Positions 3,925 through 21,842 of a stretch of DNA of 24,000 nucleotides are shown here, in pieces; positions within the stretch are counted from its first letter, which is position 1, and every line of letters starts with the position of its first letter. The DNA is taken from positions 11,198 to 35,197 of the forward strand of contig NZ_JACHCN010000003.1 in the NCBI RefSeq assembly GCF_014205795.1, read 5' to 3'. The DNA is from Rhodanobacter sp. MP7CTX1. Its GTDB lineage: Bacteria > Pseudomonadota > Gammaproteobacteria > Xanthomonadales > Rhodanobacteraceae. The translations under genes and the position numbers were made by a program. The notes beneath the pieces were generated by a model. The model was not told the origin of the DNA and ran no database searches. It was given only the letters and a program-made list of their open reading frames with translations.

Positions 3925-4605
3925 TCACAAGGGCAGTCCCTTCCCATCCTGCTCGCGGATGAGGTACTCCGCGTACCAGTCCGGCCAATTCTCATCGCGC
4001 TGGCCGCCGGTACGCTTCTCGTGCTCGCCGTGCGCAGCCTCCGCCCGCCGCAGCGCAGCCGCGAGATCCGCCGATGAGGTGAATGTCGTGACATCCGTGT
4101 CGATGCGGCCGGGTGCTCGATGGGTGAGTTCCTGGAACAGCCAGCCATTGCCGTCCGGATCGTTGAACGAGGCGAACGAGCGGTAGCTGCTACGTTCGGG
4201 ATCCGGACCGCTAACCCGGACCCTCCCGAACAGGTAAGGCTCGTCCTGGCCGGCGTACACGCCAGCGGCGTCGTGGAATACTTCGCTGATCTCCACGCCG
4301 CGACCGACCAGTTCTTTACGAGCTGCCTCGACGTCGGAGACGATCAGGTAGAGGCCCTGGGCGGATCCGGGGGTGGCCGCGGTGACGTTCTTGCCGAAGA
4401 TGACTGAGCACCCGGAACCGGGCGGGGTGAACTGAATCACGCGGAAGTAGCCATCCTCTGAAGGGTAATCAGCGTCTAACCGCCACCCCAGGCCACCGTA
4501 AAAGCGCTTGGCGCGATCAACGTCCGAAACAGGGATGACGATGATCTCGAGCTTCATATCCACACCCCGTGCATGCGGGGTTTCAACTGCAGCGCTGCTC
4601 ATCAT
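3925..4605 (-). CDS. VOC/glyoxalase-bleomycin-resistance family protein
   Basis: MKLEIIVIPVSDVDRAKRFYGGLGWRLDAD... is typical of the VOC fold. GGAGG lies 5 nt upstream of the ATG at 4605, so the longer track ORF (to 4659) is probably an over-extension. Confidence 0.82.
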   Translation of the reverse strand: MMSSAAVETPHARGVDMKLEIIVIPVSDVDRAKRFYGGLGWRLDADYPSEDGYFRVIQFTPPGSGCSVIFGKNVTAATPGSAQGLYLIVSDVEAARKELVGRGVEISEVFHDAAGVYAGQDEPYLFGRVRVSGPDPERSSYRSFASFNDPDGNGWLFQELTHRAPGRIDTDVTTFTSSADLAAALRRAEAAHGEHEKRTGGQRDENWPDWYAEYLIREQDGKGLPL

Positions 4606-4808
4606 GTGGACCTCCGATAGCTTGGGCCGCAACGCGGCCTTTGAGATTGACGACAACAAAGCTTGGTAAACGGAACCGGGCTGTGAAACGTCAACGAGAC
4701 CAGGGTGGCGTGCAACCCGTACTCGCTACGCCGCATCTCTTGGCGCCGGGTCGGCCGTGACGATCGGGCGGGCATGGACGGCGCTTGGCTGCCCATGCCC
4801 GCCCCACT

Positions 4809-5035
4809 TTACTCCGAGATCAGATGCGTGGCATGGGTGACGGTCCCACCGGCGCGCAGGTTTGCAGCGACGAACGCGGTTTCGGCATGCTCCACTTTGG
4901 TGGCCCGGCCTTAAACGCCTCCCCCCTGTGGGTTTCGATGCAATAGGGGCACTGCGTGGTCAGCGCCACCGCCATCATCTCCACTTCTTCGGGATCGCGC
5001 CGTCGCCGGGAGATCTCTGTTTTTGCCTGGATCAA
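4809..5035 (-). pseudogene. carboxymuconolactone decarboxylase/AhpD-like gene, N-terminally truncated and frameshifted
   Basis: One frame carries the CxxC core motif TTQCPYCIETH. The expected C-terminus ATKVEHAETAFVAANLRAGGTVTHATHLISE* continues in a different frame, switching near 4905-4915. The N-terminal ~40+ residues are missing at the composition break near 5040. Confidence 0.62.
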
Positions 5036-5262
5036 GTTTAAGGGGAGTCGACAGGGCGAGGAGGCCTACTCGTTTTCGCGGAAGCAAGGGCGTGCCACAA
5101 TCGTTAGTGGCTCTGTATACGTCTCCTGTAATCACTATGGAGTTACTTCGCTAAAGTTTCTGAACTGTCTGCCGATCCATGTGTGAAGGTAAATGGAGTG
5201 GACATGTCAAAGGTATTTGAGGGCCATGTCGCTCGAGTTTCGCCCTGTTTCGGATCAATCTG

Positions 5263-5859
5263 ATGCCCTACACAGAAGATTTCCGCTCCGCCGAAGAAAG
5301 GTCACGTCGTTTGGGCCTGGCTGTTCCCGCGTATGCATTTGAATCAGAACGTCGGTGGCTCGATGCCACTGCGCACGCTCAGTTTCCTTACATCGTACGT
5401 GGGGGCTTGGGTGAATTGGACTTCAGCGACGTTGTGGGTCAGTGCTTGGCCATTCACTATCGTCTGCTGCCAGTGATTCAAGAATGGCTTGGCTGCCCTG
5501 TTCTTTACACAAACGGTTGGGTCGACGACGGCACTGAGAATGGGATGTTCCGTTTCGATGAGATGTTCATCGAAGATAGACTACGGACCTATCGCACTGG
5601 AGGGCTAGTCAACATCCATGCGTGGCTAACATTGCCCAGTATGGAAATCATCGATGTATCACTAGCGACCAGTATGGCGGTACTGCAAGGATTGCCAAGC
5701 GGGCACGGTGGCGTGATTGCCATGCATGGGGATCAGACACGAGGGTTTAGCTACAAGCCAATGCTTGTTGGCTTAGATTTTCTGCATAAAACTGGTATGG
5801 CAGGATCTCGCGACGACGGTCGTGCAGCATGTAGTTACGTGCTGGCTGGAAGGAAGTAA
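5263..5859 (+). CDS. hypothetical protein with Cys61/His119/Asp131 pattern (possible transglutaminase/papain-like thiol hydrolase fold)
   Basis: 198 aa with an ATG start. GQCLAIH...NIHAWLTLPSMEIIDVS has the same residue pattern and spacing as the ORF at 10151-10780. The fold assignment is inference only. Confidence 0.55.
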   Translation: MPYTEDFRSAEERSRRLGLAVPAYAFESERRWLDATAHAQFPYIVRGGLGELDFSDVVGQCLAIHYRLLPVIQEWLGCPVLYTNGWVDDGTENGMFRFDEMFIEDRLRTYRTGGLVNIHAWLTLPSMEIIDVSLATSMAVLQGLPSGHGGVIAMHGDQTRGFSYKPMLVGLDFLHKTGMAGSRDDGRAACSYVLAGRK

Positions 5860-5928
5860 ACCGGTCTAGACGGGCCGGTACTCGCGACACATGGCGTTTG
5901 GGCAGCCGGCGTCGGCTCACAATGTCTC

Positions 5929-7041
5929 TTGCCCAACTTTGACTACATTGAATCGGTGGACCTTCGCAACTCGCTGCAAGGCGATTACGAGGAAATGCAA
6001 AAAGCCGCCAAGGTGGGAGCTTGGAAGAGCGCCCAGGTCATGGCTGGTAGCATCGTCGAATGCTTACTTGTCGATTATCTGCTTTCGAAGCCCGACGGGC
6101 CGCCCGGAAAGAATCCCCTAAAAATGGACCTCGCCGAAGCCATTGCTGCTTGCAAGGAGGATGGCGCAATTTCCGACCGAACGGCGGATCTGTGCGCTGT
6201 CGTCCGGTCATATAGAAACCTGATCCACCCAGGCCGAATGATTCGACTCGAAGAGAAGGCGCCAAACCGCGCGTCCGGTGAAATCGCGGTTGCACTGATC
6301 GAGCTGATCGTTGACGACATCGCGCAAACCAGAAGAGACACGGTAGGTCTGACTGCTGAGCAGATTCTCCAGAAGATCGAGAAAGATTTCCAAATTCAGT
6401 CGATATTGAGGCACCTTCTTGACGAAGTGCGGGAGGCTCAGCGCGTCAGACTTCTCACTGACCTTCTCCCCAAAGCACATCGGGCCCATCTAGGGTATTT
6501 CGAAGGTCAAGAGGTAGCGAAACGCATCGAGGCAGCCTTTCGAACGATATTTGAGTCGCTTTCCGCTTCTCGGAAAACGGAAGTAGCTGATCGCTTCGCG
6601 CGTTTGCTGCGGGAAGAGGATGGTGAAGTTATTGCGACCTACCGAATGGCTTTCTTCAAGGGGTCCGACCTGGAGCACCTGAGTCCGCAACACCTCGCGA
6701 TCGTCAAGGAGCATATCTTCGGATCGATCGGTAACTTGCTCAGAGACGAAGACTTAGCTGTCCTCGCCGGGATCGGCAAATTTCTAGTACCTGAGGACGC
6801 ACGGCGCTGGTTCGGGCCAATCATGTTATCGATTCTGTCGCCGAGCATCGAACAACAATTGAAGAAGAAGGCAAGGATCATAGCGATTGAAACGATAGCC
6901 CAGTCTGACTATGCCTTCTGGCAGGCCGCTGACAGGGTGGCGGCATCATGGATCAAGGCATACGAAGAGCGTGGAAAGTCCGACACCGTGGATCTTATTC
7001 AAGGATTCAGGAGCGACCTTGATGATTCGATTCCCTTCTGA
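5929..7041 (+). CDS. HEPN-domain protein (N-terminal HEPN plus ~230-aa helical C-terminal region)
   Basis: 370 aa. RSYRNLIHPGR (R93/R96...H100, nt 6205-6228) follows a helix with a conserved Glu (SIVECLLVDYL), a typical HEPN layout. The start is uncertain: TTG 5929, GTG 5956 or ATG 5995. Confidence 0.62.
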   Translation: MPNFDYIESVDLRNSLQGDYEEMQKAAKVGAWKSAQVMAGSIVECLLVDYLLSKPDGPPGKNPLKMDLAEAIAACKEDGAISDRTADLCAVVRSYRNLIHPGRMIRLEEKAPNRASGEIAVALIELIVDDIAQTRRDTVGLTAEQILQKIEKDFQIQSILRHLLDEVREAQRVRLLTDLLPKAHRAHLGYFEGQEVAKRIEAAFRTIFESLSASRKTEVADRFARLLREEDGEVIATYRMAFFKGSDLEHLSPQHLAIVKEHIFGSIGNLLRDEDLAVLAGIGKFLVPEDARRWFGPIMLSILSPSIEQQLKKKARIIAIETIAQSDYAFWQAADRVAASWIKAYEERGKSDTVDLIQGFRSDLDDSIPF

Positions 7042-7131
7042 TCATGAAGCGATAGGTTGGCAACTGATCAGGAAAAGTTCGCACGATCGTGGTGGGCTTG
7101 CGCAGCGGCATGCGGGCAACTTCTCTCCCCC

Positions 7132-7344
7132 TCATTGTGGTGGCAACCCACCTGTCACCGCGATCCACGCGGAGCGGGTGTAGTGCTCGATTTCCGAGTC
7201 TGAGGTCAATCGGTCGAGCAACAGTTTCATTTCGTGCTGATCGGAACCGGGCCGCAACGGCCCGGATTGGCGCTCGATCGCCAACACTGCTATAGCGAGC
7301 GCCTTTTTCACCAAATGCAGATCTCGTAATTCGATATTCGCCAT
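7132..7344 (-). CDS. small hypothetical protein (70 aa)
   Basis: ATG at 7344 is preceded by GAGGA at 6-nt spacing. Sequence begins MANIELRDLHLVKKALAIAVLAIERQ... No recognisable family. Confidence 0.4.
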   Translation of the reverse strand: MANIELRDLHLVKKALAIAVLAIERQSGPLRPGSDQHEMKLLLDRLTSDSEIEHYTRSAWIAVTGGLPPQ

Positions 7345-7505
7345 AGCGCATCCTCGATCCACGAAGAGGCAAAGAGAATAGCGCGACCGGCCAGTGAGCA
7401 CCTCACGCGAGTGTGCATCAAAGCTGGATCCCCGCATTCAAGTTCGCCCGCTCAAATACTCGTAGTTGTTTACCGTCACGTAGTAGCAGGAAGGAACGTT
7501 CGTAG

Positions 7506-7790
7506 CCAGGAAACCAAAGCGTACTCGCTTATCTTCCGAAAATATCTCACTGGGCGAAGGCGCCTGTCAGATGGCTGGCTGGATACATCCCCAAACTAAG
7601 AGGATTGGTCGAGCCTCAAGGGGTGCCCAAGGTGAAGAAGAAAGCGGCGGGATCCTTGCGGGCCGTCGGCAAGCGCTTTGTGTTCTTTGTCGACGATATC
7701 GACCGATTGACACCCAATGAAGCCCTGGACTTTTCCGAGAGATCGAGGCTCTCGGTGATTTCCCAGAGGTGGTTTACACCCAACCTCAAA
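7506..7790 (+). pseudogene. KAP P-loop NTPase gene fragment (Walker B region only, frameshifted)
   Basis: GKRFVFFVDDIDRLTPNEALD matches DRRVLIIIDDIDRLAPDEALG of the intact KAP at 14001-16136. After a frame change, LFREIEALGDFPEVVY matches VFRLVKSIGRLPNVMY. No Walker A is present. The fragment ends where the HEPN gene 3' end (7786) abuts. Boundaries are approximate. Confidence 0.55.
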
Positions 7791-8600
7791 ACTGCACTCC
7801 AGTCTCCCATTTCATCCTTAAATCGATGTTGGCGGTGACCGTCGCGAGTTGAGTCGCTGCATGGACTGCTTGCATGCAGTCATGTGCGTGGCAGACGGTT
7901 GATCCAGGTTCATGCACCAATTGGTTACGGAGCTTGCGAAGTGTGTCCACCAGGTCGGCAATCTTGGCAGGAATCAAGCCGGTGTCACGGAGTTCATTGA
8001 CCATTTTGCTGACTGGAATGGGGCGGCCGTTTTTTTGTGACCGAGGGCCAAAGATGGCCTTGACGGAAGACTCGATAACGAACCATAGAAGTGTGAAGGA
8101 GACCTTGTAGTCGTTGTTCTTGTAGGCTGTCTTCGCTTTTGCAATGAACGATAGTCTCTTCACCAAATCGGCGTCTTTCGACACGAAAGTAAAACTATCT
8201 AGGGCGTCTACAATCACCGATCTCTTGACCACGCGCCAAAGCGCCAAGTCATCGAGTGTCTCATTGGTGGTCAAAGGCGTCTTCATTCCGCCGGCTATCC
8301 ATGCAGTCAGATCGCTTCGTGCGCGCAGAGGCGACCAGCGTCGAGGATATCTTCGATTAACCACCGAGCCGTCCAGGAAGCCGACTCTACAGGTATCAGA
8401 GATCGACACTGCATCGGCTAAGGCCTCCTGCGAAATCGTGCATTTGAGTGATTCAGACTCGATAAGAAGTAGCAAAGTGTTCGCGTAGTCCAAGTGCTCA
8501 TCCCACCACTGGACAGACTCGTTGAGCTTGTTGGGGTCGCCCATGTTAGGTATGGATGTCGCTAGATGGTCCATTCTCAGAAGAACTAGGCCATCGATAC

Positions 8601-8604
8601 ACAC
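8601..8604. repeat. target-site duplication ACAC (left copy)
   Basis: ACAC lies immediately outside the IS terminus, and an identical ACAC sits at 9794-9797. Confidence 0.75.
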
Positions 8605-8645
8605 CGACGTCCCCCCGCTTTCAGTAGCGGAGCGAATTAGAGTCC
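8605..8645. repeat. IS terminal inverted repeat (orfB-proximal end)
   Basis: CGACGTCCCCCCGCTTTCAGTAGCGGAGCGAATTAGAGTCC compared with the reverse complement of 9752-9793. The first 13 nt are identical, then the two are similar with one indel. Confidence 0.72.
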
Positions 8646-8649
8646 GGGA

Positions 8650-9474
8650 TTACTGTAACTGTTTTGCATAGGCGGCAGGCGTCAGTCCGCCGAGTGCTTT
8701 CTTGGGTCGTTCCTCGTTGTATTCCCGACGCCAGCTTTCGATCTCGGTGCGTGCGTGTAACAGGCTGGGAAACCAGTGCTCGTTGAGGCATTCATCGCGA
8801 AAGCGGCCATTGAACGATTCGATATAAGCGTTCTGGTTGGGCTTGCCTGGTTCGATCAGGCGAAGCTGCACGCCACGTTCGTGTGCCCAGGTGACCATGG
8901 CCTTGCCGCAGAACTCTTTGCCGTTGTCGCTGCGAATGACTTTGGGCAGGCCGCGACTGAGCGCAAGACGATCCAGCACGCGCGCCAGGCCCATGCCGGA
9001 GATCGCCCGTTCAACCTCGATAACGACTGCCTCGTGGGTGGCATCGTCGACCACGGTTAGGCACTTGATGACACGAGCATCCGCCGTGCGATCAAACACG
9101 AAATCCATCGACCATACCTCGTTGGGTGCCGACGGCCGCAACAGCGGTTGCCGCTCAGCTACTGGCACTTTCTTCCGCTTGCGTCGGCGCACCTGCAGCT
9201 TCGCTTCCTGGTACAGACGCTCCACGCGTTTGTAGTTCACCAGCAGTCCCTCCTGTCGAAGCTTCAGGTAGATCATCCCCACGCCGTAGCGCTTGTGCCG
9301 CTGTGCCAGGGCCACGATCCGTTGTCGAAGATCCTCGTTACCATCCGGGCGCGTCTCGTAGCGATACGCACTGGCACTCATGCCCACGATCGCCAGCGAC
9401 CGGCGTTCGCTCAAGCCCTTGTCCACTATGTGCCGCACCAACTCGCGTCGAGCCGGTGCGCTCACCACTTTTTT
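8650..9474 (-). CDS. IS3-family transposase OrfB (DDE/rve catalytic domain), expressed as an OrfAB fusion by -1 frameshift
   Basis: The -1 frame from the slippery site reads [13 protein letters not shown]... and runs to the stop at 8650. It has an rve-type DDE triad. The upstream part of the 375-aa track ORF is a shadow of orfA. Confidence 0.88.
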
Positions 9475-9725
9475 CGCAACGCTTCCTTGATGACCTCGTT
9501 CTCGAGCACGTGCTCGGCGAGCAACTTCTTCAGCCGCGCGTTCTCCGTCTCCAGCTCCTTCAGGCGCTTGGCATCGGGCACGCTCATCCCGCCAAACTTG
9601 CTGCGCCACAGGTAGTACGAGGCCTCGCTGAAGCCGTGCCGGCGGCACAGCTCCTTCACCGGCATGCCGGCTTCCGCTTCGCGCAGGAAGCCGATGATCT
9701 GTTCTTCGGTAAACCGCTTCTTCAC
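9462..9725 (-). CDS. IS3-family transposase OrfA (HTH)
   Basis: (M)[45 protein letters not shown]... with a leucine-zipper-like tail. GTG start at 9725 is preceded by AAGGAG at 7 nt. The track start (TTG 9731) is 2 codons longer. Confidence 0.88.
9468..9474 (-). promoter_or_regulatory. programmed -1 ribosomal frameshift heptamer A AAA AAG
   Basis: The minus strand reads CGA AAA AAG TGG TGA in the orfA frame. This X XXY YYZ motif sits 2 codons before the orfA stop, the classic IS3-family arrangement. Confidence 0.8.
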
Positions 9726-9751
9726 GTCCAATCTCCTTGGGTTGAGGGATT

Positions 9752-9793
9752 GGACTCCAAATCGCTGTGCTACTCAAAACCGGGGGGACGTCG
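9752..9793. repeat. IS terminal inverted repeat (orfA-proximal end)
   Basis: The reverse complement reads CGACGTCCCCCCGGTTTTGAGTAGCACAGCGATTTGGAGTCC. Confidence 0.72.
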
Positions 9794-9797
9794 ACAC
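9794..9797. repeat. target-site duplication ACAC (right copy)
   Basis: Matches 8601-8604. A 4-bp duplication fits the IS407 subgroup. Confidence 0.75.
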
Positions 9798-10150
9798 AAG
9801 TGCTTTAAACGTGTCGTTTACTGTTTGAACGGCGATTTCGGGAATTATTCCTGCTAGACGGTGTGCGCTTTGAAAGTTGTAGGGGTCAATCGCCTCATCG
9901 ACCCAAAATCCTTCAGATGTATAGAAGCCAACAAACGTTTCCATTTGCTTTAGCTGGGCATCCATTCGCTCTTTGGTCATACTGCCGAGCCCGTTCATGT
10001 CCATTCGGTTTTGATCCGCATGTGTGTTCATTTTCTGGGCGTGTGCCAGGCGACGTCCGTCTGGAATTGAGTAGCACGAAGCATTAGAGGTCCTACCTCA
10101 CACTTGAGGAGATCGGACGTGAAGAAGTATTTTTCGGAAGGACGTAGCAT

Positions 10151-10780
10151 CTAGAACGGAAGCTTTTCGATTCGCGCATACCTCGCAAATTTGATCGCGC
10201 CGTGTGCCCAAGGGTCTCTGCGGGTCATGGCTCGCTGCAACGCTTCTTTTCCGCTGAAAATCCAAGTCGGTAGCGTCGGGCGTATTCCCTGTTCCCACCG
10301 GCTATTGCACTCCTTAAGAAATGCTTGCATGCGGCCAGTGATGGTGTCGTTCGACGCTAGTTGTACGTCGGGCTCATAGCGAAATTTCGGTCGATATCGG
10401 AGGAATAGTGGGCACTGAGCAAGTGGCAGCGCTATCGCTGGTATGGTCGCAGCGGGAAAGCTGGATTTACGAGGCAAATAGTGGGGGCCTAGGTCGAGGA
10501 GTCGCCCCGAGGACTCGACCCAGAAATGCGACGGCAGCGCTAAATCGCTTCCTTGCCCGAAGCCCTGAAAATTTGCTTGCCGGCCGTCCTTCGAGACGAC
10601 GAATGCAAGAAAATCACCTCCAACAATACGGGCGTCGAGGCCCAATTGTCTGAGTAGTGAGGAAAGACCGAAGGCGGCGTACACGCATCGTGCATCGTAG
10701 TCATCTGGGAACAGCTCACGCAGCATGCTATCAATGAGACCCATGCAACTCGCTATCTCGTTCGAAGCTTCCTGGCTCAT
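10151..10780 (-). CDS. hypothetical protein with Cys32/His85/Asp96 pattern, divergent paralog-like of 5263-5859
   Basis: 209 aa from the ATG at 10780, with AAGGA 9 nt upstream. ARCVYAAFGLSSLLRQLG...PSHFWVESSGRLLDLG. The 98-codon N-terminal extension in the track ORF looks non-coding. Confidence 0.55.
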   Translation of the reverse strand: MSQEASNEIASCMGLIDSMLRELFPDDYDARCVYAAFGLSSLLRQLGLDARIVGGDFLAFVVSKDGRQANFQGFGQGSDLALPSHFWVESSGRLLDLGPHYLPRKSSFPAATIPAIALPLAQCPLFLRYRPKFRYEPDVQLASNDTITGRMQAFLKECNSRWEQGIRPTLPTWIFSGKEALQRAMTRRDPWAHGAIKFARYARIEKLPF

Positions 10781-11423
10781 CGTTTCAATTCCTTTAGCGT
10801 GCTGGTGGGGCAAACATGGCGGTTTCGCTTGTGCCACGGCCATACCCCGACGCTGTGGCGAGTTCGGTGCGGCTTGTAATCTTAGGCGAAAACTAGTCGG
10901 GCAAGAGTGGCTTCCCCCCCACGAGTCCCTGTGCTGGCATTGATGCGCGAAGAGTTGAAGTTTCGATTCAACGTCAGTGCATACGAGGCCGCGCAGAAAA
11001 AGACGGCCGACCACGCCAAAAACCAGGTTGGCCCGACGCTCGACGCAATGCGTAAAGGCGCGTCCTCCCAGCAAGGCTGAGCCTTGCTCAAGGCCTCGGA
11101 CGACACAGAAGTTCCCCGTGTGCAGTAGCAGCCGGCTCTAACAATCCTGTTTCGGAAAAATGCCTGGGCATTTGGGCCTCATAGTCGGCGTTCGTGGCTG
11201 ACGGCTTTGCCGGCGCGTAACACTACCGCTGGGCTTGGGCAGCACAAGTAACTAAACTCGTACCTGTCGAAACGCGGAAATTGCGTCTCTCAGAGGTGGC
11301 CTCCTGAGACTGATGATGGCGGGCTGTACACATGCGGTTTTTGGCCCCACGGGTTTCCTGCTGGGGTTTGGGGTTACCGAAGTGATCGCTCTTCTATCTG
11401 AAATCACAAAGGAGGATATGCGC

Positions 11424-11652: not shown

Positions 11653-12216
11653 ATGACCGTCGCGTTCAAAATTCTTGGCCACCTTATCGACGAAGCAAAT
11701 GCCGCTCGCGCGCATTTTCAAGTGTGGTGGGCGTTGCGCAACCTGGCGTTGCCAGAGTTTTACGACACAATGAATGATTCCAAGTATGTCCAGTTCTTCC
11801 ATGCTTCGAATTCTGGCCATTACAAGCTGGTGTTCGTTGCTCTAGGTAAGATTTACGACAGTGACACCCGCGCCGCTGGCATAGCTGAGTTGAAGAGCGC
11901 CTTACGAGCCGAGGGGCGAGCTGACGTGGCGGATAAGGTCCAGCGGGACTTGGCCTCAATGAACGCGCATGTGCAACGCATCCTCGGGATTCGCAACCGC
12001 ACCGTGCTGCACAACGAACATGCTCTAGAGCGGGCTATTGTCTATGAGATGCATGGCATTCAGCCAGACGAAATATGGGAGTTGATTGACGCGACGTCAG
12101 AAGCCTTTAACGTAGCAGCTGAGGCTCTTGGGCACTCGTTCCGCGTCTCTGCAAGCAAATCTTACGAGGCGGCTACACTCGCTATGCTCGAACAATTGCA
12201 ACGTGGCGGCGCCTAA
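11653..12216 (+). CDS. HEPN-domain protein, AbiU2-like
   Basis: 187 aa. ILGIRNRTVLHNEH carries an RN...H motif (R114...H120, nt 11992-12012). The size and the helical N-terminal part (HFQVWWALRN, LVFVALGKIYD) resemble abortive-infection AbiU2-type HEPN proteins from memory. Confidence 0.6.
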   Translation: MTVAFKILGHLIDEANAARAHFQVWWALRNLALPEFYDTMNDSKYVQFFHASNSGHYKLVFVALGKIYDSDTRAAGIAELKSALRAEGRADVADKVQRDLASMNAHVQRILGIRNRTVLHNEHALERAIVYEMHGIQPDEIWELIDATSEAFNVAAEALGHSFRVSASKSYEAATLAMLEQLQRGGA

Positions 12217-12423: not shown

Positions 12424-13941
12424 TCAGCGTTGAGGGATTGGTGGCTGCCATCCAGTCACTGGTCCGACGTGAACGCTGATGCCGTATGCAAATTGATGCT
12501 GATGATATGGAGATCCGCGGTAGAGAATTGCGTCGACCTCTTGGGCGAGCTCTCGATAAAGCTCGTTGTCCGTCGCGCAGGAATACAAAAGCGCAATGCG
12601 CAGTTTTTGAGGCCCGCTTGAGGCGGCGACCTTGACATATAGCGAACGATCGTCTGGCTCACCAATCTCGACGCTCCAGCCTGCGTTTCTTAAAGGTCGC
12701 ACCAGATCGTCAATGCATTCCTGCTGAAGCACGGCTTTTCGTAGCAAGACGCCGTCGTCGGTAGGCATTGCAGGTACCAGCCTGCCATGCTGGCGATAAT
12801 TTTGTTGTTCGATTTGCTTTACTGCCATTTGGGCCTGCGCTTGCAACATCGCCTGCTGCCATAGAAGCCTGCCGTCCTCATCCATGCCAGGGAATATAAG
12901 CGGCACCTGATTGGACTCATCGTGCCATGACTCGATCACCCCAAGTGTTGCAATAGCCACCACAAGACGCGAAAAATTTGACGGCTTCTGCCAGTCCATT
13001 GATGCGCCGTGTGCGAACAGGTGTCGGTTTAACCAAGTGAGGCCGTCATACTCGCCGGTACGGCGAAAGAATGAATTCTCGAGCCACCGCCGGAAGGTTT
13101 GAAATACAAAGACTCGTTCGTCCTGCACGTAAAGGTAATCTTTTTCGCGGTACTCGGATGGAACCCACATGTCACCGAAGTGCGATCTGGCTGCCAACAT
13201 GCATGCCCGATCAATAATTTTGTCGACCTGCTCGAGAACAGGTTGCCCTGCGGCTTCGCTCGATATGCGACTGACCGCGCCTTCCATCACCGGAATCAGC
13301 GCCGCAATGCTGGAGGCCCTGTGCCCTGAATAGAACGCGAGATAGGCTTCCCGTGCGATCGGGGCAAATACCGAAAGCGATCGAGACTGAGGCAAGAATT
13401 GCGCGATGCACACTGCCTGAAACGGTAACGTGTAGATCGTTGATGTGTGATATTCAAACAATCGCAGCGCGTCCTCTTTGGAACGGTGCTCAATCGCCTG
13501 AAGTAGCTCATTGACCTTCCCCTGGGGAACCCAGAGAGGTGCAAACCACTCGACTTTTTCCCACAGGCTTGCGATCCGGTCCAAATGGACTTTGTGGGCG
13601 ACCCATTGCGGGTCACCAGTTGCCGCAACTTTCGGAAAGCAGGCTATTCCCTCGTCCGACTGCAGAACAACTGCGGGAGTGGGCCGGAAGATGCCAACAC
13701 TACGCTCCGAAACATCGAGCACTTTGATTTCCATCTGGTGGGCCCAGCCAGAGACCAGGTCCGCCTGAAGATCATTCAAGCTCGGCAGCGCCATAGCACG
13801 CCGCCAGAGTCCGGGAAATTTCGATCGACTCTCTTCGCCAGTCATTTCCGTCCAAATGCCGAGTTCGTCTTTCATGATCATTTGGACAGATTTGTCACTA
13901 TCAGCCCACCGTTCGCAGTGATCGACCAACCGGCCGCTCAC
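12424..13941 (-). CDS. large hypothetical protein with central HEPN-like region (Rx4H)
   Basis: 505 aa, 60 bp downstream of the KAP NTPase on the same strand. FAPIAREAYLAFYSGHRASSIAALIPVMEGAVSRI ... TWLNRHLFAHGAS (R306...H311, nt 13009-13026) ... NFSRLVVAIATLG. The GTG start at 13941 is uncertain. Confidence 0.7.
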   Translation of the reverse strand: MSGRLVDHCERWADSDKSVQMIMKDELGIWTEMTGEESRSKFPGLWRRAMALPSLNDLQADLVSGWAHQMEIKVLDVSERSVGIFRPTPAVVLQSDEGIACFPKVAATGDPQWVAHKVHLDRIASLWEKVEWFAPLWVPQGKVNELLQAIEHRSKEDALRLFEYHTSTIYTLPFQAVCIAQFLPQSRSLSVFAPIAREAYLAFYSGHRASSIAALIPVMEGAVSRISSEAAGQPVLEQVDKIIDRACMLAARSHFGDMWVPSEYREKDYLYVQDERVFVFQTFRRWLENSFFRRTGEYDGLTWLNRHLFAHGASMDWQKPSNFSRLVVAIATLGVIESWHDESNQVPLIFPGMDEDGRLLWQQAMLQAQAQMAVKQIEQQNYRQHGRLVPAMPTDDGVLLRKAVLQQECIDDLVRPLRNAGWSVEIGEPDDRSLYVKVAASSGPQKLRIALLYSCATDNELYRELAQEVDAILYRGSPYHQHQFAYGISVHVGPVTGWQPPIPQR

Positions 13942-14000: not shown

Positions 14001-16136
14001 TCAAAATCTCTCCGACCCCTTTCTCGCCCACGCCTCCAGGAATACCCGCACGGCCTCGAGGTCTTCTGCGGGCCGCCGCTGCTCGCGAGCGATACGCTCC
14101 AGTGCAGTTCGAAACTGGTCTGGATCAAACAAGTCAAAGTCGCTGCGAATATCGACACGCATCTCTCGGCGTGACACGCGATCACCGAGGCTGCCAAACC
14201 CACCCAGCCCTGTCGTCCTTGACTCACTAGTCAACGCGCGCGCCAGCCGCACCAGGACATCGTCGCGGCGCATTCTGTCGGTGAGCCAAGCCTTCATTTC
14301 GGCACCGTCGTCGCCGGCAAACTCCCTCCAGCGGTACAGGCAATACATGATGTCTCGCTGGAGTAGCAGCGAATCATCCTGGGCTGCCTGGCGTAGCGCG
14401 TTTAACGCGCGCTCTATCAGGGCGGGCAAAGCTTCCTTCGTCGTTAGTGCCGTCGCTAAATCTAACTCTCGTCCCTGCCGGGGATAGTGATCAGCGTAGG
14501 CCGAAGAAACAAAATCAACCAGCCAGCCCAATGTGGCGCGCTCGGTAGCGGCCAAGTAGAGCGCGGACTTTTCCTCGAGCGTGAAGCGATCTTCTGTCAC
14601 GCGGCGAATGAGCCAATGTATACGCAGCGACGTCGTAGCCATCGCGAAACCACGCTCTCCGTCTTGCTCGCGATCAATCGCGTCGGCGATCTCGAAGATG
14701 GCCGAGAAGAACGCGGGCACCTTGTCTTTGGCGATTTGTCGCCCATGACTGGTCAGCTCGTCCAGCACCACCGGGACCATCGATTTAGCTTTGCTCCGAA
14801 GCTGTGTCGCTGCACGCAACAACCTCTCTTGAATGAACTCTTTGTCACCCGATCGATCCAGAAGCTCCCGGATCTCCTTACTGGGCAATGTGTCGTCGCT
14901 CAAGGACATCTTGAAATAGGTATCGAAATGCTTGGCCACGCACACGCGGCGTTCCAATTCCCAGCTTTCGCGAAACCCCGAGTATGTGACTTCCTCGAAC
15001 GCCGGGAACAGACGCTGCAGAGCAATTTGCAGCCCTTCAAGGCGCTCTTTCGGCATGCCGGCCAAGAACGGATCGAAGCGCGCCTTGTCCCTCGACCCAC
15101 CCCGACTGGCGCTGGTCACAATATCCCGGTGCTGCCGGATCGACGTGTAGAGCGAGGGCTCGTACAGGCGCAAGGTTTCTAAGGCGAGGTAGTCGGCGTG
15201 GCTGACGTTGTTGGCCACTGGCGGCCAGGTAACAGTGATCGCGTTGATCAAGCGAGTAACGTGCCGCGGCGTGGTGAGGTAGGGAACCACCACGTCATAG
15301 AACAAATTCATGAAACGCACCTGATGCTCTTCCTTAGGCGTACCGCACCGTTCCTGGAAGGCCGTCAGTAGCGCGTTGTGCAAATCGCTGGGCGTTGGCG
15401 AAGGAAGTTCGAAGCTGGCTTGGATGATCTTCTCGAGAAAGTGAGGGCCTTCAGAAGGAAAGCGCTCCTTGACCGCAGCATCGGCCAGCGCACGATCGAA
15501 CACCATCAGATACATAACGTTGGGCAAGCGACCGATGGACTTGACCAGCCGAAACACCCCCAACGCCTCGTCCGGGGCCAACCGGTCGATGTCATCGATG
15601 ATGATTAACACACGCCGGTCCTGCGCCTCGAGCGTCTTGGAGAGCTTGCGAAAGGTCTTTTCCAACGAGGGTTTGTCGGGGAAAAAGCGCTTGGCGAAGG
15701 CTGCCGAGCCCGCGGCCAAGGCACCCCAACCGCTGGTCGTAGCCAAGGCGATCGCACTGCCGAGTACCGGCCCGGCTTGAAGCACGTGGCGACCCATTTC
15801 CGGCACTAGGTCTTTGACCTTGTCACCCAAGGAGCTCTTCAGTGCGGAGTTCAGTTCTTGCAAAAACGCCAGGGCGATTGCTTCCTCGCCTCGGTACCAC
15901 CAACACTTAAAATCAAAGACCGACAAGGTGTCGTCCTTTCGCTCGAGCAGTTCTGCCCGAATCAAGTTGACGGCACTGCTCTTGCCCGAGCCCCACGGGC
16001 CGGTCACCGCAATGGTGCTCCCGACAGGTTTGGCAATGCCAAGCAAACTCGTCGCCAGAGCCTCGGCAAAGGCGTGGACTCCATAACAATCGTCTTCCCG
16101 ACGTTCAATTGGACTGTCGTTAAAGTACTGGGACAT
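14001..16136 (-). CDS. KAP-family P-loop NTPase
   Basis: 711 aa. Walker A is GPWGSGKS (nt 15978-16001). A Gly/Ala-rich hydrophobic insert (AGPVLGSAIALATTSGWGALAAGSAAF) separates the Walker motifs. Walker B is RVLIIIDDIDRLAPDEAL, followed by LMVFDR. RBS GGAGAAAGGG precedes the ATG at 16136. Confidence 0.92.
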   Translation of the reverse strand: MSQYFNDSPIERREDDCYGVHAFAEALATSLLGIAKPVGSTIAVTGPWGSGKSSAVNLIRAELLERKDDTLSVFDFKCWWYRGEEAIALAFLQELNSALKSSLGDKVKDLVPEMGRHVLQAGPVLGSAIALATTSGWGALAAGSAAFAKRFFPDKPSLEKTFRKLSKTLEAQDRRVLIIIDDIDRLAPDEALGVFRLVKSIGRLPNVMYLMVFDRALADAAVKERFPSEGPHFLEKIIQASFELPSPTPSDLHNALLTAFQERCGTPKEEHQVRFMNLFYDVVVPYLTTPRHVTRLINAITVTWPPVANNVSHADYLALETLRLYEPSLYTSIRQHRDIVTSASRGGSRDKARFDPFLAGMPKERLEGLQIALQRLFPAFEEVTYSGFRESWELERRVCVAKHFDTYFKMSLSDDTLPSKEIRELLDRSGDKEFIQERLLRAATQLRSKAKSMVPVVLDELTSHGRQIAKDKVPAFFSAIFEIADAIDREQDGERGFAMATTSLRIHWLIRRVTEDRFTLEEKSALYLAATERATLGWLVDFVSSAYADHYPRQGRELDLATALTTKEALPALIERALNALRQAAQDDSLLLQRDIMYCLYRWREFAGDDGAEMKAWLTDRMRRDDVLVRLARALTSESRTTGLGGFGSLGDRVSRREMRVDIRSDFDLFDPDQFRTALERIAREQRRPAEDLEAVRVFLEAWARKGSERF

Positions 16137-16416: not shown

Positions 16417-17181
16417 TCATCGAGATGAGTTCGTCGGGGTTGAGGTGGCTCCATCACTGTGCTGCACTCTGGACGTTGCCCACACTACCGATCCTATCGG
16501 TACGGTTACTACTTCCTCATGGGAGAAAAGGGCACAGAAGCGATCGGAGCATTGCATGATCCGATATGAGTGAAGCACTCCGTCAGGAGACGTGACCACG
16601 ATCGCCGGCGCATTGGGAAACCCTCGCGCGAAGTCTTCCGCAGCCGTTGCAGCTCCTACGTGCAGGAAAGGTGCCACAAGGAGTAGGAGCGTGGCGCCAA
16701 TTACAAGGCACAGGGTGTAGAGCATATAGGCGCCGAAGAAGGCGCTGAAGACCCAAAGGGCTGCCAGCTTTACCGCAGGGTGCAGCGAAAGCGACCGAGT
16801 ACCTTGATGCGATCGTGAGCTACGCCAGCGCTCGGCAAGCTGGCGAAGGTAATAAGCGCCGACAGCCAATACCACGATTGAAATAGCGGGCACCAGAGTG
16901 GTGGCCGCCCAGTGCATTTTGAAGGTGTCACTGATGGCCGTAAAGACCCTGGTTGCCCCTCCCATCCAGGCGAGCGCTGCAAAGGTCAATGTATCGGGGA
17001 CATCGGATGGGAACATGGAAGAGGATAGGTGAAAGTAGCCAAGATAGCCTTCGTGAAAGGCTACCCCGTTCAAATAGAACACGGGTGTAAGGATTGCGAT
17101 TGCGGTAACTAGCCATTTGGCGATGGCATACCAAGCCATCTTTTCTTTCCCACCATCCGTGGCTGCAGATTCAGCGTCCAT
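16417..17181 (-). CDS. multi-pass membrane protein (4-5 TM) with a ~70-aa soluble C-terminal domain
   Basis: 254 aa. Hydrophobic segments: WLVTAIAILTPVFYL, LTFAALAWMGGA, LVPAISIVVLAVGAYYL, LAALWVFSAFFGAYMLYTLCLVIGATLLLLVAPFL. GAGGA RBS upstream of the ATG at 17181. Confidence 0.75.
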   Translation of the reverse strand: MDAESAATDGGKEKMAWYAIAKWLVTAIAILTPVFYLNGVAFHEGYLGYFHLSSSMFPSDVPDTLTFAALAWMGGATRVFTAISDTFKMHWAATTLVPAISIVVLAVGAYYLRQLAERWRSSRSHQGTRSLSLHPAVKLAALWVFSAFFGAYMLYTLCLVIGATLLLLVAPFLHVGAATAAEDFARGFPNAPAIVVTSPDGVLHSYRIMQCSDRFCALFSHEEVVTVPIGSVVWATSRVQHSDGATSTPTNSSR

Positions 17182-17322: not shown

Positions 17323-17766
17323 CTAGTAAATCCCATGTGCTGTTCGGTACAACAGGGACTCTACTAGACGGGCACCGCTATCGCTTACAGCTAAGGCCAT
17401 CGGAGTGATGGGAATTTGCTTGGGAATGTAGTTTGCGGGAGTGCGGAGCCACTTCAATGCGGCTTCCTCATTGCAAAACAGTTGCACAGCCTCGGCAAAG
17501 ACACGGGCCAGGCGCACGACACGATCGGATTCGTGTACGGCGAATCGGCTGTTAGAAGCGAGTCGGCGCCGCACTGTACTTTCAGGGACGAGAAGGCCGG
17601 GTGGCAACCTGAGCTTTGCCGTCACGCGCATGTATGTTCGGGCGCTGATACCACTGGAAACCGCACGGACGACATCGGCTTCAGAGTCAAGTTTCAGGTT
17701 AAGCAGCTCGCTCATCCGAGTGAAAATTGGCACCGTTTGGACTGACGGATTGGGAAGATCTCGCAT
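17323..17766 (-). CDS. Xre/MbcA/ParS-type antitoxin-like protein (DUF2384 toxin-binding domain)
   Basis: 147 aa. ESDRVVRLARVFAEAVQLFCNEEAALKWLRTPANYIPKQIPITPMALAVSDSGARLVESLLYRTAHGIY matches the conserved C-terminal domain of RES-associated antitoxins. GAGGAGG lies 7 nt upstream of the ATG. Confidence 0.82.
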   Translation of the reverse strand: MRDLPNPSVQTVPIFTRMSELLNLKLDSEADVVRAVSSGISARTYMRVTAKLRLPPGLLVPESTVRRRLASNSRFAVHESDRVVRLARVFAEAVQLFCNEEAALKWLRTPANYIPKQIPITPMALAVSDSGARLVESLLYRTAHGIY

Positions 17767-18930: not shown

Positions 18931-19197
18931 ATGGGCGATAACCCCCAATCCCGAGTGGACCTTGAGCTGTACCTGCCCAGGACACCGGTTATAAGCGGCG
19001 CAGAGACTGCCCGCATCATGGGGTTTTCCACTACCGAAGCCCTTTACAAGGCACGGCAAGCCGGACGGCTGCCGATCGACCTGTTTCGCTTACCTGGACG
19101 ACGAGGCTGGTTTGCGGCTACTCCCGCTGTGAGAGAGTGGTTGCACGGAGTCATGTCCGAAGGGGGCGTCGGTACCAACCCAGGAGACAGGAGATGA
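18931..19197 (+). CDS. AlpA/excisionase-type helix-turn-helix DNA-binding protein
   Basis: 88 aa. VISGAETARIMGFSTTEALYKARQAGRLPIDLFRLPGRRGWFATPAVREWL fits the HTH_17/excisionase pattern. ATG 18931 preferred over the track TTG at 18925. Confidence 0.68.
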   Translation: MGDNPQSRVDLELYLPRTPVISGAETARIMGFSTTEALYKARQAGRLPIDLFRLPGRRGWFAATPAVREWLHGVMSEGGVGTNPGDRR

Positions 19198-19340
19198 CTA
19201 TGAGCGAATAGCCCACTTGGCGGGCTATAAAAGTTCGAGCCCCGCGTGGCAAGACGCAGGGCTCGGATACGAAGGCGAAGCTTTTGAGAATCGCGCTTCT
19301 CCTTCCTTATAGTGCCGCCCCCAGAGCACGTCAAGCGATT

Positions 19341-19357
19341 TCACCGCATAGCGGTGA
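19341..19357. promoter_or_regulatory. perfect inverted repeat TCACCGC-ATA-GCGGTGA upstream of the transposase gene
   Basis: 7-bp arms and a 3-nt spacer, 83 bp upstream of the ATG at 19440. Possible operator. Confidence 0.35.
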
Positions 19358-19439
19358 TGAGTTGATCCCGCGTGTTCGGATTTCCGGCGACCCTGCCAGG
19401 CCGTCTAGGTCCTTGCGCGCCCAGCGAGGAGGCACACCC

Positions 19440-21842
19440 ATGTTTAGTGATGCTCAGCGAAGCCTTTACTACCAAGCACGAGGTCTACATTCCACCGCCC
19501 TGCGCGAAGTCGAGGAGATGAGGGTGAACAGCCCGGCGCGAGAACCCAGTCAACGTGGCCTCACGAACACCATTGTCGACTTCCACTCAACGATGAGCGA
19601 CCGGCGGTGGTTGTTGGAGAGCTATACCGGCGAATTTCTCTTCGCGCTCTATCTAGAGGTGTTCAGTGGCTGCGACGAGTACTACGCTCAGGTGCGGCCG
19701 AAGAACGTGGTTCGCAATAGGCGGACGAGCTCGCTCACCGTCGACTTCATGGTGTTTGATCGGGCGGGAATCCGGCTCGTTGAAGTAAAGCCGCAAAGCC
19801 GACTGGAAGCGCTGGGTACTTCGAACCCCGAAGAGTGGGTATGCCACGCGGGGCGCTGGACGAGGCCGCCGGTGGAAGCGTGGGCAAGCGATCGAGGTCT
19901 GACCTACACCATCTGGTCCCCACCGGAACCTCACGGCATTTGTCAGGTAAACCTACTGTCTCTTTACGGAGTGGTGGCCGATACAGCGGCTCGAGAAGCC
20001 GAAATGAAGTGCGTTCGGCGCTTACGCAGGTTATTGCAGAAAGGCCCCCTAACCATATGCGACGCACTCGATAGGGTCTCTGGCCTCTCTGGAGTGCACG
20101 TACTCGCTGCGCTGGCAAAGGGATACATCTTCGGTCCTTTGCAGTCGGTTCCTCTCGACGAGGCTGGCCGCTTCACGCTTTTCGGCGTCAAAGCGCAGGC
20201 GGTCGAGTGCGATGAGCGACTGCTGAGTCAGCTGAAGGCGCATGTCAGCCAGCCCAACGTCGGCTCGAAGCTTATGCTGGCGAGCCCCAAGGACTACGCC
20301 AGCGCCCAACTTCGCCTAGCAAAGGTGAATCGAATCTTGGCGGGTGAGGTGCCCGCGACTCGACGATATGCTCCTTTGGTCCGCATCGTGTGCCAAGCGC
20401 GATCAGACGGACAGAGCGAGCTCGAAGTCTGCCTGACGCGCTACGCGAACTCGGGTCGACGCATAGGTCAGTTGACGGGCGATCAAGAGCGCGAAATGGC
20501 CGCGGCAATTGACGCGTATCGGAAGAATCCTGATATTCGCAACAAGCTCCAAGCCCATGACTATTTGGTAAAAGCCTGCGATCTTAAGGGCATTCGTCCT
20601 CCGGGCCGTGCGACTTTCAACGCTCGCCTTCGTCAGTCGAGCGACTTGGTGCGCGCTTATACCGAAGGAGGCTACAGGGGCTACCACGCCGCGGAGTGTG
20701 TATCAGACCCTGGTAATAGAACACTGCGTTGCAACGTGCCGGGCCTGATGGTGCACATCGACTCCACGAAGTTCGATTTGCGCTGTACTCCCGATTTCCT
20801 GGGTGCCTTGGAGTTCGACTGTCCGACACTCTACGTGGCCATGGATTCGGCTGCAGCTAAGCCGTTGGGCTACGCCGTATTGTTTGGTCCGGCGTGCCGC
20901 AACGCGTTAGCTGTGCTCATTCGCGACATCTTTCACAGGCAAGGTTTTTTGCCTCGTTACTGGATCGCTGATGGTGGCGCGGAATATGTCGGCCCCTGGT
21001 TTGCAGAAGCGTGTTCGTTTTTTGGCGCTACCCGCATACAGCCACCTCCGGGTACTCCCCGCAGGAACTCGCTTGCAGAAAACGCCCTAGGTCGAATCAA
21101 CGCCGAACTCGCGCATCGCTTCTTGGGTAGCACCGCGCCGGATCAAAAGGGACGCTCGGTCACTTCACGCCAAAAGAGCTACGCCACAGCCTGCCATCGT
21201 TACTCGACGATCGCAGAACACCTTGAGAAATATCTCTTCGAAGATGTCCCCGAGACACCACTGTTGTCTACGCGGTTCAGCCCTCAGGAAAGGAACGATG
21301 AGCTTACCGCCCTCTATGGCAATGCTGGTGCAGTAAGGATTCGGAATCTGGATGAGTTCCTGATCGTAACCTCGGTTCCTCTCGGTCGAGGAGTCACCGC
21401 CGATCCTCGTCGTGGGATCCGTTATCTCCAACGAACCTACGCCAGCGCTGACCTCATGCAACTCCTTCGCTTTCATAAGCCGATCGACATACGGTTGGAT
21501 TGTGTGGATCCGCACCGAATGTACGTGCGATTTCCATCGAAGTGGGTGCTCGCAATGACCAGCCAAAGCTTGCAAACCGGTGGTAGGGATACCGCGACCA
21601 AACTTTTCGAATCCATCATGGATAGCAAGCTGAGAAGCGAAGGGGCGCAGAAACGCGACGAACTTCGGAGAAAACGCGCAGAGCGCATTGCCGAAGCAAA
21701 CCTAGCAGCCAAGACGGCGGACCACCTCACATACATGCTTAAGCCTGCGAAAGATGCGCCACCGAAGACTAAGAAAACACGCATCTGGAGTGATCTCAAA
21801 AGCCCAATTGCCCCCTTCACCACCGGACAGGGTGACCTATGA
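19440..21842 (+). CDS. fused TnsA-like endonuclease / TnsB(TniA)-like DDE transposase
   Basis: 800 aa from ATG 19440, with GAGGAGG 7 nt upstream. The N-terminal part, LESYTGEF...LTVDFMVFDRAGIRLVEVKPQ, has the E/D/K pattern of the TnsA restriction-endonuclease-like fold. The C-terminal part has an rve-type triad: HIDSTKFD (D, nt 20760-20762), WIADGGAEYVG and NSLAENALGR. It also has the Mu/TnsB-type motif RRGIRYLQRTYAS. Confidence 0.82.
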   Translation: MFSDAQRSLYYQARGLHSTALREVEEMRVNSPAREPSQRGLTNTIVDFHSTMSDRRWLLESYTGEFLFALYLEVFSGCDEYYAQVRPKNVVRNRRTSSLTVDFMVFDRAGIRLVEVKPQSRLEALGTSNPEEWVCHAGRWTRPPVEAWASDRGLTYTIWSPPEPHGICQVNLLSLYGVVADTAAREAEMKCVRRLRRLLQKGPLTICDALDRVSGLSGVHVLAALAKGYIFGPLQSVPLDEAGRFTLFGVKAQAVECDERLLSQLKAHVSQPNVGSKLMLASPKDYASAQLRLAKVNRILAGEVPATRRYAPLVRIVCQARSDGQSELEVCLTRYANSGRRIGQLTGDQEREMAAAIDAYRKNPDIRNKLQAHDYLVKACDLKGIRPPGRATFNARLRQSSDLVRAYTEGGYRGYHAAECVSDPGNRTLRCNVPGLMVHIDSTKFDLRCTPDFLGALEFDCPTLYVAMDSAAAKPLGYAVLFGPACRNALAVLIRDIFHRQGFLPRYWIADGGAEYVGPWFAEACSFFGATRIQPPPGTPRRNSLAENALGRINAELAHRFLGSTAPDQKGRSVTSRQKSYATACHRYSTIAEHLEKYLFEDVPETPLLSTRFSPQERNDELTALYGNAGAVRIRNLDEFLIVTSVPLGRGVTADPRRGIRYLQRTYASADLMQLLRFHKPIDIRLDCVDPHRMYVRFPSKWVLAMTSQSLQTGGRDTATKLFESIMDSKLRSEGAQKRDELRRKRAERIAEANLAAKTADHLTYMLKPAKDAPPKTKKTRIWSDLKSPIAPFTTGQGDL

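Follow-up and report, generated by a model that had tools for sequence, protein, structure and literature searches.

Introduction

Do the genes for small thiol hydrolase-like proteins and the genes for HEPN proteins that follow them constitute two-gene defence systems, or have they come to lie side by side independently? This question is raised by positions 5263-10780 of a 24,000-nucleotide stretch of the genome of Rhodanobacter sp. MP7CTX1 (contig NZ_JACHCN010000003.1, positions 11,198 to 35,197; hereafter, the window). In this region, two small proteins, designated S1 and S2, are encoded on opposite strands, and each gene is followed on its own strand by a gene for a HEPN protein, H1 and H2, respectively. 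S1 (5263-5859, + strand) is a solitary 198-amino-acid protein with a predicted papain-like Cys61-His119-Asp131 arrangement and is common on mobile elements; H1 (5929-7041, + strand) consists of 370 amino acids and carries an N-terminal DUF4145-type HEPN domain, and its homologues stand alone. S2 (10151-10780, - strand) is a 209-amino-acid protein with a predicted papain/transglutaminase-like Cys32-His85-Asp96 arrangement and is a remote relative of DUF2026 (Atu2299). H2 is encoded by two fragments (10031-9794 and 8604-7786, - strand), which are separated by an insertion sequence (IS).

A preliminary description of the locus correctly gave the positions and lengths of both small open reading frames (ORFs), their Cys, His, and Asp residues, and the gaps of 69 bp between S1 and H1 (5860-5928) and 119 bp between S2 and H2 (10032-10150). 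It also had each small gene followed by one for a protein of 350-370 amino acids, which holds for H1; H2, split by the IS, is not an intact ORF. The region was interpreted as two inverted and divergent copies, analogous and not simple duplicates, of a cassette that may couple a thiol hydrolase to a ribonuclease (RNase). Such a pair would have been a new defence architecture; however, the evidence points to chance juxtaposition in a rearranged island. The region 5263-10780 probably forms part of a mosaic island whose single-gene modules were acquired independently, and not a set of two two-gene systems.

Conservation of the Gene Pairs

If a small protein and a HEPN protein worked together, their genes would be expected to recur side by side. 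The survey covered 52 loci with S1 homologues (43 genome loci, 7 loci on viral contigs, and 2 further loci), approximately 12 with S2 homologues, 8 with H1 homologues (L051-L058, representing three genomic contexts), and 2 with H2 homologues. On the S1 side, phmmer searches with H1 and H2 across the ORFs of the 43 genome loci found nothing. A hidden Markov model (HMM) of the H1 family likewise found nothing at E<=10 among the 176 genes located within two positions of the 52 S1 homologues, and neither did phmmer with H2 over the same genes. Among the 95 immediate neighbours of S1 homologues, Pfam identified integrases (4), SMC_N, AAA_15, AAA_21, and AAA_23 ATPases (3-4), relaxases (2), Mor, and amidase_2; no HEPN family is present among the 25 Pfam families listed for these neighbours. 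DUF4145 was detected in only one of the 19 same-strand downstream neighbours, which is H1 of the window itself (the other 18 come from other loci). Apart from those adjoining relaxase genes (see below), S1 homologues stand alone, with reverse transcriptases, IS elements, or Qat genes nearby.

The other three genes behave in a similar way. Downstream of S2 homologues that are 89-90% identical to S2 lies either a T5orf172-like gene or a convergent gene for a 261-amino-acid protein, and never H2. Close S2 homologues are preceded by genes for a 101-amino-acid protein and a 99-amino-acid DUF1889 protein (L001 5339-5951; L067 5278-5888). In the 8 loci containing H1 homologues, the H1-like gene stands alone among housekeeping or other island genes and has no S1-like neighbour, and no S2-like gene lies upstream of the intact H2 homologue found on a metagenomic contig (L059). 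HMMs of S1 and S2 found nothing in the 10 loci that hold H1 or H2 homologues, and nothing in the window was matched by tblastn with the neighbours of foreign S2, H1, and H2 homologues. Thus, the pairing of a small gene with a HEPN gene fails to be conserved in any direction surveyed, and the proposed coupling of a thiol hydrolase to an RNase does not recur in homologous loci, whether these are approached from the small-protein or from the HEPN side.

In two of the genomic contexts of H1 homologues, an ORF of 57-63 codons is located on the same strand 77-152 bp downstream (L051 6185-6376; L052 1322-1513; L053-L056, e.g., L053 6263-6436). A tblastn search found no counterpart of this small ORF in the window.

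Disruption of H2 and the Junction between S2 and H2

The H2 gene consists of an 85-amino-acid ORF (10031-9774) and a 272-amino-acid ORF (8604-7786), between which lies an element of 1,189 bp (8605-9793, - strand). This element is a complete IS3-family insertion sequence. It is bounded by 17-nt terminal inverted repeats that are 94% complementary and contains orfA (9731-9462; HTH_Tnp_1) and orfB (9777-8650; rve, rve_3), the product of which matches the NCBIfam model transpos_IS3 with 234 bits at a cut-off of 160. The element is flanked by a 4-bp target duplication, GTGT (8601-8604 and 9794-9797). Excision of the element together with one GTGT copy joins 10031-9798 to 8604-7786 and restores a frame of 350 amino acids, in which the 5' fragment (9794-10031) contributes residues 1-79 and the 3' fragment (7786-8604) contributes residues 80-350, including the C-terminal HEPN domain. 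Moreover, contig L059 represents the empty site: it contains an uninterrupted H2 homologue (5004-6044, 346 amino acids) with 82% protein identity and, over the 3' fragment, 84.8% DNA identity, and the pair of window segments aligned to it have exactly the 4 bases of the duplication in common. Because the IS3-family element splits its frame, H2 is a recently inactivated pseudogene; it illustrates cleanly how a defence gene is inactivated by insertion of an IS3-family element, and the empty site can serve for comparison.

The 119-bp gap between S2 and H2 is itself largely filled by a second IS-derived sequence, a remnant of 101 bp (10051-10151, + strand) that starts right at the S2 stop codon and resembles the left end of a related IS3-family element. 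It extends from the terminal repeat into the beginning of orfA, of which it retains the first codons, and forms inverted repeats (I1 and I2) with positions 9693-9793 of the complete element. The same remnant follows a 90%-identical S2 homologue in L001 (approx. 6694-6790), and beyond its terminal repeat the two loci contain different genes. Truncation of S2 by the remnant at its stop codon was considered and ruled out, as all S2 homologues end in ...LPF at approx. 209 amino acids.

The DNA on the two sides of this remnant is homologous to different foreign contexts. L059 matches the window solely across the H2 gene (7780-8604 and 9794-10017), and L001 and L067 match it solely across the S2 block (10105/10148-10919) and a distant block at approx. 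19040-22046. S2 thus resides in an 815-bp block of homology, which on one side ends 139 bp upstream of the S2 start (10781-10919), so that the genes for the 101-amino-acid and DUF1889 proteins preceding close S2 homologues are missing from the window, and on the other side ends in the IS-end remnant, beyond which the sequences diverge. Since H2 matches L059 only and S2 matches L001 and L067 only, S2 and H2 are separately exchangeable modules whose junction lies in or next to the IS remnant. HEPN genes are also dense in this island, where they account for three of approx. 11 genes, and a chance adjacency is therefore likely; by a rough estimate, the chance that both small genes would have a HEPN gene downstream may be approximately 0.1.

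These observations also bear on the view that S1-H1 and S2-H2 are analogous two-gene systems, in which the thiol hydrolase would process, activate, neutralise, or act in parallel to the HEPN RNase in a toxin-antitoxin or sensor-effector arrangement. The two genes of each pair have the same orientation and are closely spaced, the small proteins share a fold class and the large proteins a HEPN type, S1 and H1 are not separated by a terminator-like site, and fusions of HEPN and transglutaminase-like peptidase domains occur in giant defence proteins (PMC3710099). Nevertheless, such systems appear very unlikely at this locus and are largely refuted by the lack of recurrence in the loci surveyed, by the position of the S2-H2 junction between segments of different foreign homology, by the disruption of H2, and by the density of HEPN genes. 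More generally, adjacency within a defence island needs a conservation test before it is called a system.

The HEPN Proteins

The assignment of H1 and H2 as DUF4145-type HEPN proteins is reasonably supported by their sequences. H1 matches DUF4145 (PF13643; gathering cut-off, 23.1 bits) over residues 22-101 with 19.2 bits (E 1.3e-3), and restored H2 matches it over residues 242-324 with 22.7 bits (E 1e-4), both just below the cut-off. In the same regions, both proteins match phrog_1305; moreover, H2 matches the N-terminal DUF4145 region of type I HsdR, and one H1 homologue (P0175) has a precomputed PF13643 match. At least 178 full-length homologues of H1 were found. In 37 sequences, Glu44, Arg96, and His100 are invariant and Asn97 is invariant or nearly so; the resulting motif, RNLIH (R96-N-L-I-H100), has Rx3H spacing when counted from Arg96 and Rx6H spacing when counted from Arg93. 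H2 carries the canonical RNQLVH motif (R304-NQLV-H309; Rx4H), which is kept in the L059 homologue. H1 and H2 are almost absent from plasmids in searches of plasmid records, and the H1 profile has no match among PDB sequences.

The preliminary description regarded the HEPN modules of H1 and H2 as similar to each other. Both of the segments it quoted are indeed present, and the module is N-terminal in H1 and C-terminal in H2, as it stated; the likeness, however, is confined to a HEPN core of approx. 50 shared residues (BLASTP E 0.005; hhalign probability, 5.9%). The remaining parts, approx. 260 amino acids in H1 and approx. 230 in H2, are mutually unrelated, as had also been noted, and match no known family. 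H1 and H2 are otherwise unrelated proteins that resemble each other at the domain level only.

The Small Proteins S1 and S2

Searches with S1 identified 160 homologues of approx. 185-190 amino acids, all annotated as hypothetical, in Beta- and Gammaproteobacteria, Bacteroidota, Campylobacterota, and other groups; a protein of Rhodanobacter sp. MP7CTX1 is 100% identical to S1. Cys61, His119, and Asp131 are invariant across 47 diverse members, down to approx. 38% identity, and so are Trp121, Thr123, Pro125, and Glu128 of the HAWLTLPSMEIID block. S1 is matched by no model of Pfam, NCBIfam, PADLOC, or PHROG and represents a family without a Pfam model; the 47 relatives likewise have no match in Pfam, Transglut_core3 and DUF2026 included. 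The S1 profile finds no meaningful match among PDB sequences and shows no similarity to a DUF2026 protein (probability, 0.1%), and S1 has no match in curated phage genomes. A DUF1851 label, which UniRef attaches to one homologue, was rejected because no member of the S1 family matches Pfam DUF1851 at E<=0.1.

The AlphaFold model of S1 has a predicted local distance difference test score (pLDDT) of 91 and a predicted template modelling score of 0.88. In this model, Cys61 is the first residue of a helix (61-76), His119 opens a strand (119-123), and Asp131 closes the next strand (128-131). A Foldseek search of the PDB with the model returned no close relative; the top entry was 2HLY (E 0.067; probability, 0.80; TM score, 0.41; 208 aligned columns), and the lower entries included papain-like proteins, namely SseI, phytochelatin synthase, transglutaminase 2, plant cysteine endopeptidases, MepS, and a CHAP endolysin. 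The last approx. 18 residues of S1 (approx. 181-198; window 5803-5859) depart from the consensus of the family, and their pLDDT in the model is below 61; this divergent C-terminus may be a trace of recombination where the module ends on its 3' side.

S2 starts at an ATG and comprises 209 amino acids; a longer, 307-amino-acid ORF at this position is regarded as spurious because the homologues share the same MSQEAS start. The S2 family is rarer than that of S1: a word-indexed search found 6 homologues, and a full HMM scan found 139 representatives. Among 72 relatives, His85 and Trp191 are invariant, and conservation is at least 90% for Cys32, Trp87, and Asp96, with Cys32 replaced by Ser or Thr in a few cases. 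S2 itself has no match in Pfam, PADLOC, NCBIfam, or PHROGs. Of its 72 relatives, 11 weakly match Transglut_core3 in Pfam (best E 2e-4) and 2 match DUF2026 (E approx. 0.04). A small S2 profile found no match among PDB sequences; the best match of the 72-sequence profile is 2HLY, across the His...Asp hairpin. Aligned by hhalign with a DUF2026 protein encoded on a Rhizobium plasmid, the S2 profile superimposes Cys, His, and Asp over 74 columns (probability, 57%; E 1e-4). The model of S2 (pLDDT 59.7) also has 2HLY as its best PDB match (E 0.016; probability, 0.89; 193 columns) and tentatively places Cys32 in the first turn of a helix (28-45), His85 at the opening of a strand (85-90), and Asp96 after a strand (93-95).

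Since the triads are conserved and both models match 2HLY first, the assignment of S1 and S2 as papain/transglutaminase-like Cys-His-Asp proteins is supported at the level of predicted structure, and the C...H(A/F)W...D signature had been correctly read as a mark of this fold. The arrangement of the triads was derived from secondary-structure positions in the predicted models. Structure prediction and Foldseek agree with that reading in the top match and in the placement of Cys on a helix, with weak matches for both proteins and a poor model for S2.

The two small proteins are nevertheless not copies of each other. BLASTP produced no alignment between S1 and S2, and hhalign with the first profiles gave a probability of 0.14%. 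When the deep, 72-sequence S2 profile was used, only a 21-column His...Asp hairpin was aligned (probability, 5.6%; single-comparison E 0.007), which is the exact segment spotted in the preliminary description, and a forced global hhalign alignment was meaningless. As there is no significant similarity between the two at the level of sequence or profile, S1 and S2 represent separate families of one superfamily and not diverged copies. Their likeness is the generic active-site signature of the papain-like/transglutaminase-like superfamily of Pfam clan Peptidase_CA.

It might also be supposed that the two small proteins have kept a papain-like fold but no catalytic activity and serve as scaffolds or as immunity-type binding proteins. 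DUF2026 has no known activity, the Cys position is occupied by Ser in 2HLY and by Ser or Thr in a few S2 relatives, and one database labels an S1 homologue as DUF1851. However, the invariance of Cys, His, and Asp in S1 among distant members, and of His in S2 with Cys and Asp nearly invariant, is the conservation expected of active sites, and the DUF1851 label finds no support in Pfam; inert proteins are therefore an extremely improbable explanation.

Candidate Partners of the Small Proteins

If the HEPN proteins are not the partners of S1 and S2, the neighbourhoods of their homologues may indicate which proteins are. S1 homologues were found on 159 plasmid records, 130 of which are conjugative, and conjugative plasmids of clinical relevance commonly carry the family. 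In an E. coli plasmid of type IncI-gamma/K1 (L074, NC_019097.1, 7001-7573), the S1 homologue begins 25 bp after nikB on the same strand, and on Yersinia contigs (L072/L073, 6001-6573) it begins 38 bp after the relaxase gene, also on the same strand. In both inspected relaxase-adjoining loci, the order is nikA-type gene, relaxase gene, S1 homologue (e.g., WP_000332081.1); a literature search found no paper that cites this accession.

S2 homologues are found in other surroundings. A 42%-identical homologue is the third gene of an operon that also contains Metallophos and SMC_N genes, and it overlaps the end of the SMC_N gene by 4 bp. Plasmid-borne homologues lie near TIR, DUF4238, AAA and UvrD, and DUF2026 genes; one of them is located directly upstream of an AAA and UvrD-helicase pair, and the last gene of a divergent AAA operon in the same locus encodes a DUF2026 protein. 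SMC/ABC-type ATPase genes are recurrent neighbours of S2-like and DUF2026 genes (L005 2259-6639; L081 582-8573; L079).

The adjacency of S1 homologues to relaxase genes and the proximity of S2-like and DUF2026-like genes to those for SMC/ABC-type ATPases may provide leads to the true partners. In one alternative, the two small proteins would not be free-standing enzymes but accessories to mobile elements or to defence systems based on ATPases: S1 would be linked to conjugation or establishment together with the relaxase operon, for example as an anti-defence factor or an enzyme that processes relaxosome or host proteins, and S2 and DUF2026-like proteins would be subunits of SMC/ABC-ATPase nucleases. 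The spacing of 25-38 bp after relaxase genes, the share of conjugative plasmids, the presence of SMC_N, AAA_15, AAA_21, and AAA_23 among the commonest S1 neighbours, the 4-bp overlap with the SMC_N gene in the Metallophos operon, and the AAA-UvrD locus with its DUF2026 gene are consistent with such roles. Each of these associations, however, concerns a minority of loci (raw counts of 2-4 among 95 neighbours) in islands rich in such ATPases, and in the window neither S1 nor S2 has such a partner; this explanation is unlikely. A related proposal, in which S1 is an unrecognised thiol enzyme of plasmid transfer or establishment, S2 and DUF2026-like proteins are accessory subunits of SMC/ABC-ATPase defence, and the adjacency to HEPN genes reflects a shared role in conflict instead of a direct partnership, is rather unlikely; the S1 family in question has at least 160 members, occurs on many conjugative plasmids, and directly follows the relaxase gene in the inspected loci. 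If this proposal were true, S1 would, for example, cleave or modify a host defence or relaxosome protein during transfer or establishment.

A Model for the Origin and Function of the Modules

In the preferred reading of the region as a mosaic of single-gene modules, module shuffling would have placed small genes and HEPN genes side by side, with the S2-H2 junction located in or next to the IS-end remnant. H1, and H2 before its disruption, would most likely each act alone as an abortive-infection-type HEPN RNase, as suggested by their family. S1 and S2 would be cytoplasmic single-domain thiol hydrolases or transferases, in which His would activate, and Asp orient, a Cys thiolate for attack on an amide, isopeptide, or thioester bond. 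The substrate would be a protein or peptide, and each enzyme might act alone or with partners other than HEPN proteins.

Several points weigh against this reading. The 69-bp gap between S1 and H1 and the absence of a terminator-like site leave room for co-transcription of the two genes, which may occur in this genome, and a lineage-specific functional interaction between S1 and H1 may exist. Pfam detects divergent HEPN domains only weakly, with H1 and H2 themselves just below the DUF4145 cut-off, and may have overlooked a highly divergent HEPN gene next to some homologue. With respect to the small proteins, the S1 model matches 2HLY only weakly, the S2 model is of low confidence, and the juxtaposition of Cys, His, and Asp at the residue level is putative. 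Moreover, the functions proposed for all four proteins are putative.

The Surrounding Island

The left border of the island is located at approx. 4,700-5,000, where the G+C content drops from approx. 0.64 to approx. 0.53 between a glyoxalase-like gene (3925-4659) and S1. No tRNA genes are present in the window. Beyond S2 and divergent from it lies an AbiU2-family HEPN gene (11653-12216, + strand; Pfam HEPN_AbiU2 E 8.6e-10), followed by a gene for a 505-amino-acid protein (12424-13941) that has no match in any library and by a defence gene for a PifA-like KAP-family P-loop NTPase (14001-16136, - strand; PADLOC PifA E 2e-116, Pfam KAP_NTPase E 3.5e-46). An Xre/ParS-type antitoxin gene (17323-17766, - strand; TIGR02293 E 6e-20) is followed on the same strand by a 254-amino-acid ORF without a family match (16417-17181), which may encode the toxin partner of the antitoxin. 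Finally, a block at 19284-22825 encodes an 852-amino-acid protein with a weak DDE (IS481/rve-like) signal, the gene of which overlaps the start of that for a 328-amino-acid TniB-like AAA_22 ATPase. The island is probably cargo beside this TniA/TniB-like transposition module. Because a block approx. 75% identical to it lies approx. 3 kb from the S2 homologues (L001 1-3002; L067 6-1233), the island may be cargo of a Tn5053/Tn7-like element.

Comparison with Known Systems

S1 and S2 are further members of the papain-like superfamily, H1 and H2 of the DUF4145 HEPN proteins, and the insertion sequence of the IS3 family. With the DUF4145-type HEPN proteins described in a survey of the superfamily (Anantharaman et al. 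2013, PMC3710099), H1 and H2 share the R-N-x-x-(x)-H motif and the defence-island context; H1 differs in having Rx3H or Rx6H spacing instead of the canonical RNxxxH. HEPN-MNT type VII toxin-antitoxin systems also place a gene for a HEPN RNase beside a small gene on the same strand. However, the small genes described here encode predicted papain-like proteins and not nucleotidyltransferases, their neighbourhood is not conserved, and HepT models reach no better than E 0.14 against H2. HEPN and a transglutaminase-like peptidase are described as parts of one conflict system in a single case, that of giant conflict proteins of the MTES_1575 type, which fuse the two domains (PMC3710099). These are single polypeptides of more than 2,000 amino acids that also contain helicase and DNase modules, whereas S1, S2, H1, and H2 are encoded by separate genes whose pairing is not conserved.

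As to the small proteins, the Cys...H-x-W-x-E...D signature recalls Transglut_core3 (PF13471, MEROPS C96, which includes the lasso-peptide protease McjB) and Transglut_core (PF01841), and the predicted location of Cys on a helix and of His and Asp on adjacent strands resembles that in transglutaminase-like peptidases. The matches of S2 relatives to Transglut_core3 are weak, however, the S1 family has none, and there are no lasso-peptide genes nearby. The nearest solved fold is that of DUF2026 (PF09641), whose structure 2HLY (Atu2299/APC5867) represents a papain-like protein of uncharacterised function encoded near restriction-type genes (PMC10318531, a 2023 survey). Neither S1 nor S2 reaches the Pfam threshold for DUF2026, and the nucleophile position is occupied by Ser in 2HLY and by Cys in S1 and S2. 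On the other hand, all three are single-domain proteins of approx. 200 amino acids, 2HLY is the top solved match of both models at near full length, DUF2026 genes are likewise found among restriction- and defence-type genes (PMC10318531), and on a Rhizobium plasmid a DUF2026 gene lies three genes from an S2 homologue. S1 and S2 thus define two uncharacterised families of small, predicted papain-like Cys-His-Asp proteins with conserved catalytic residues that are linked to DUF2026 through 2HLY.

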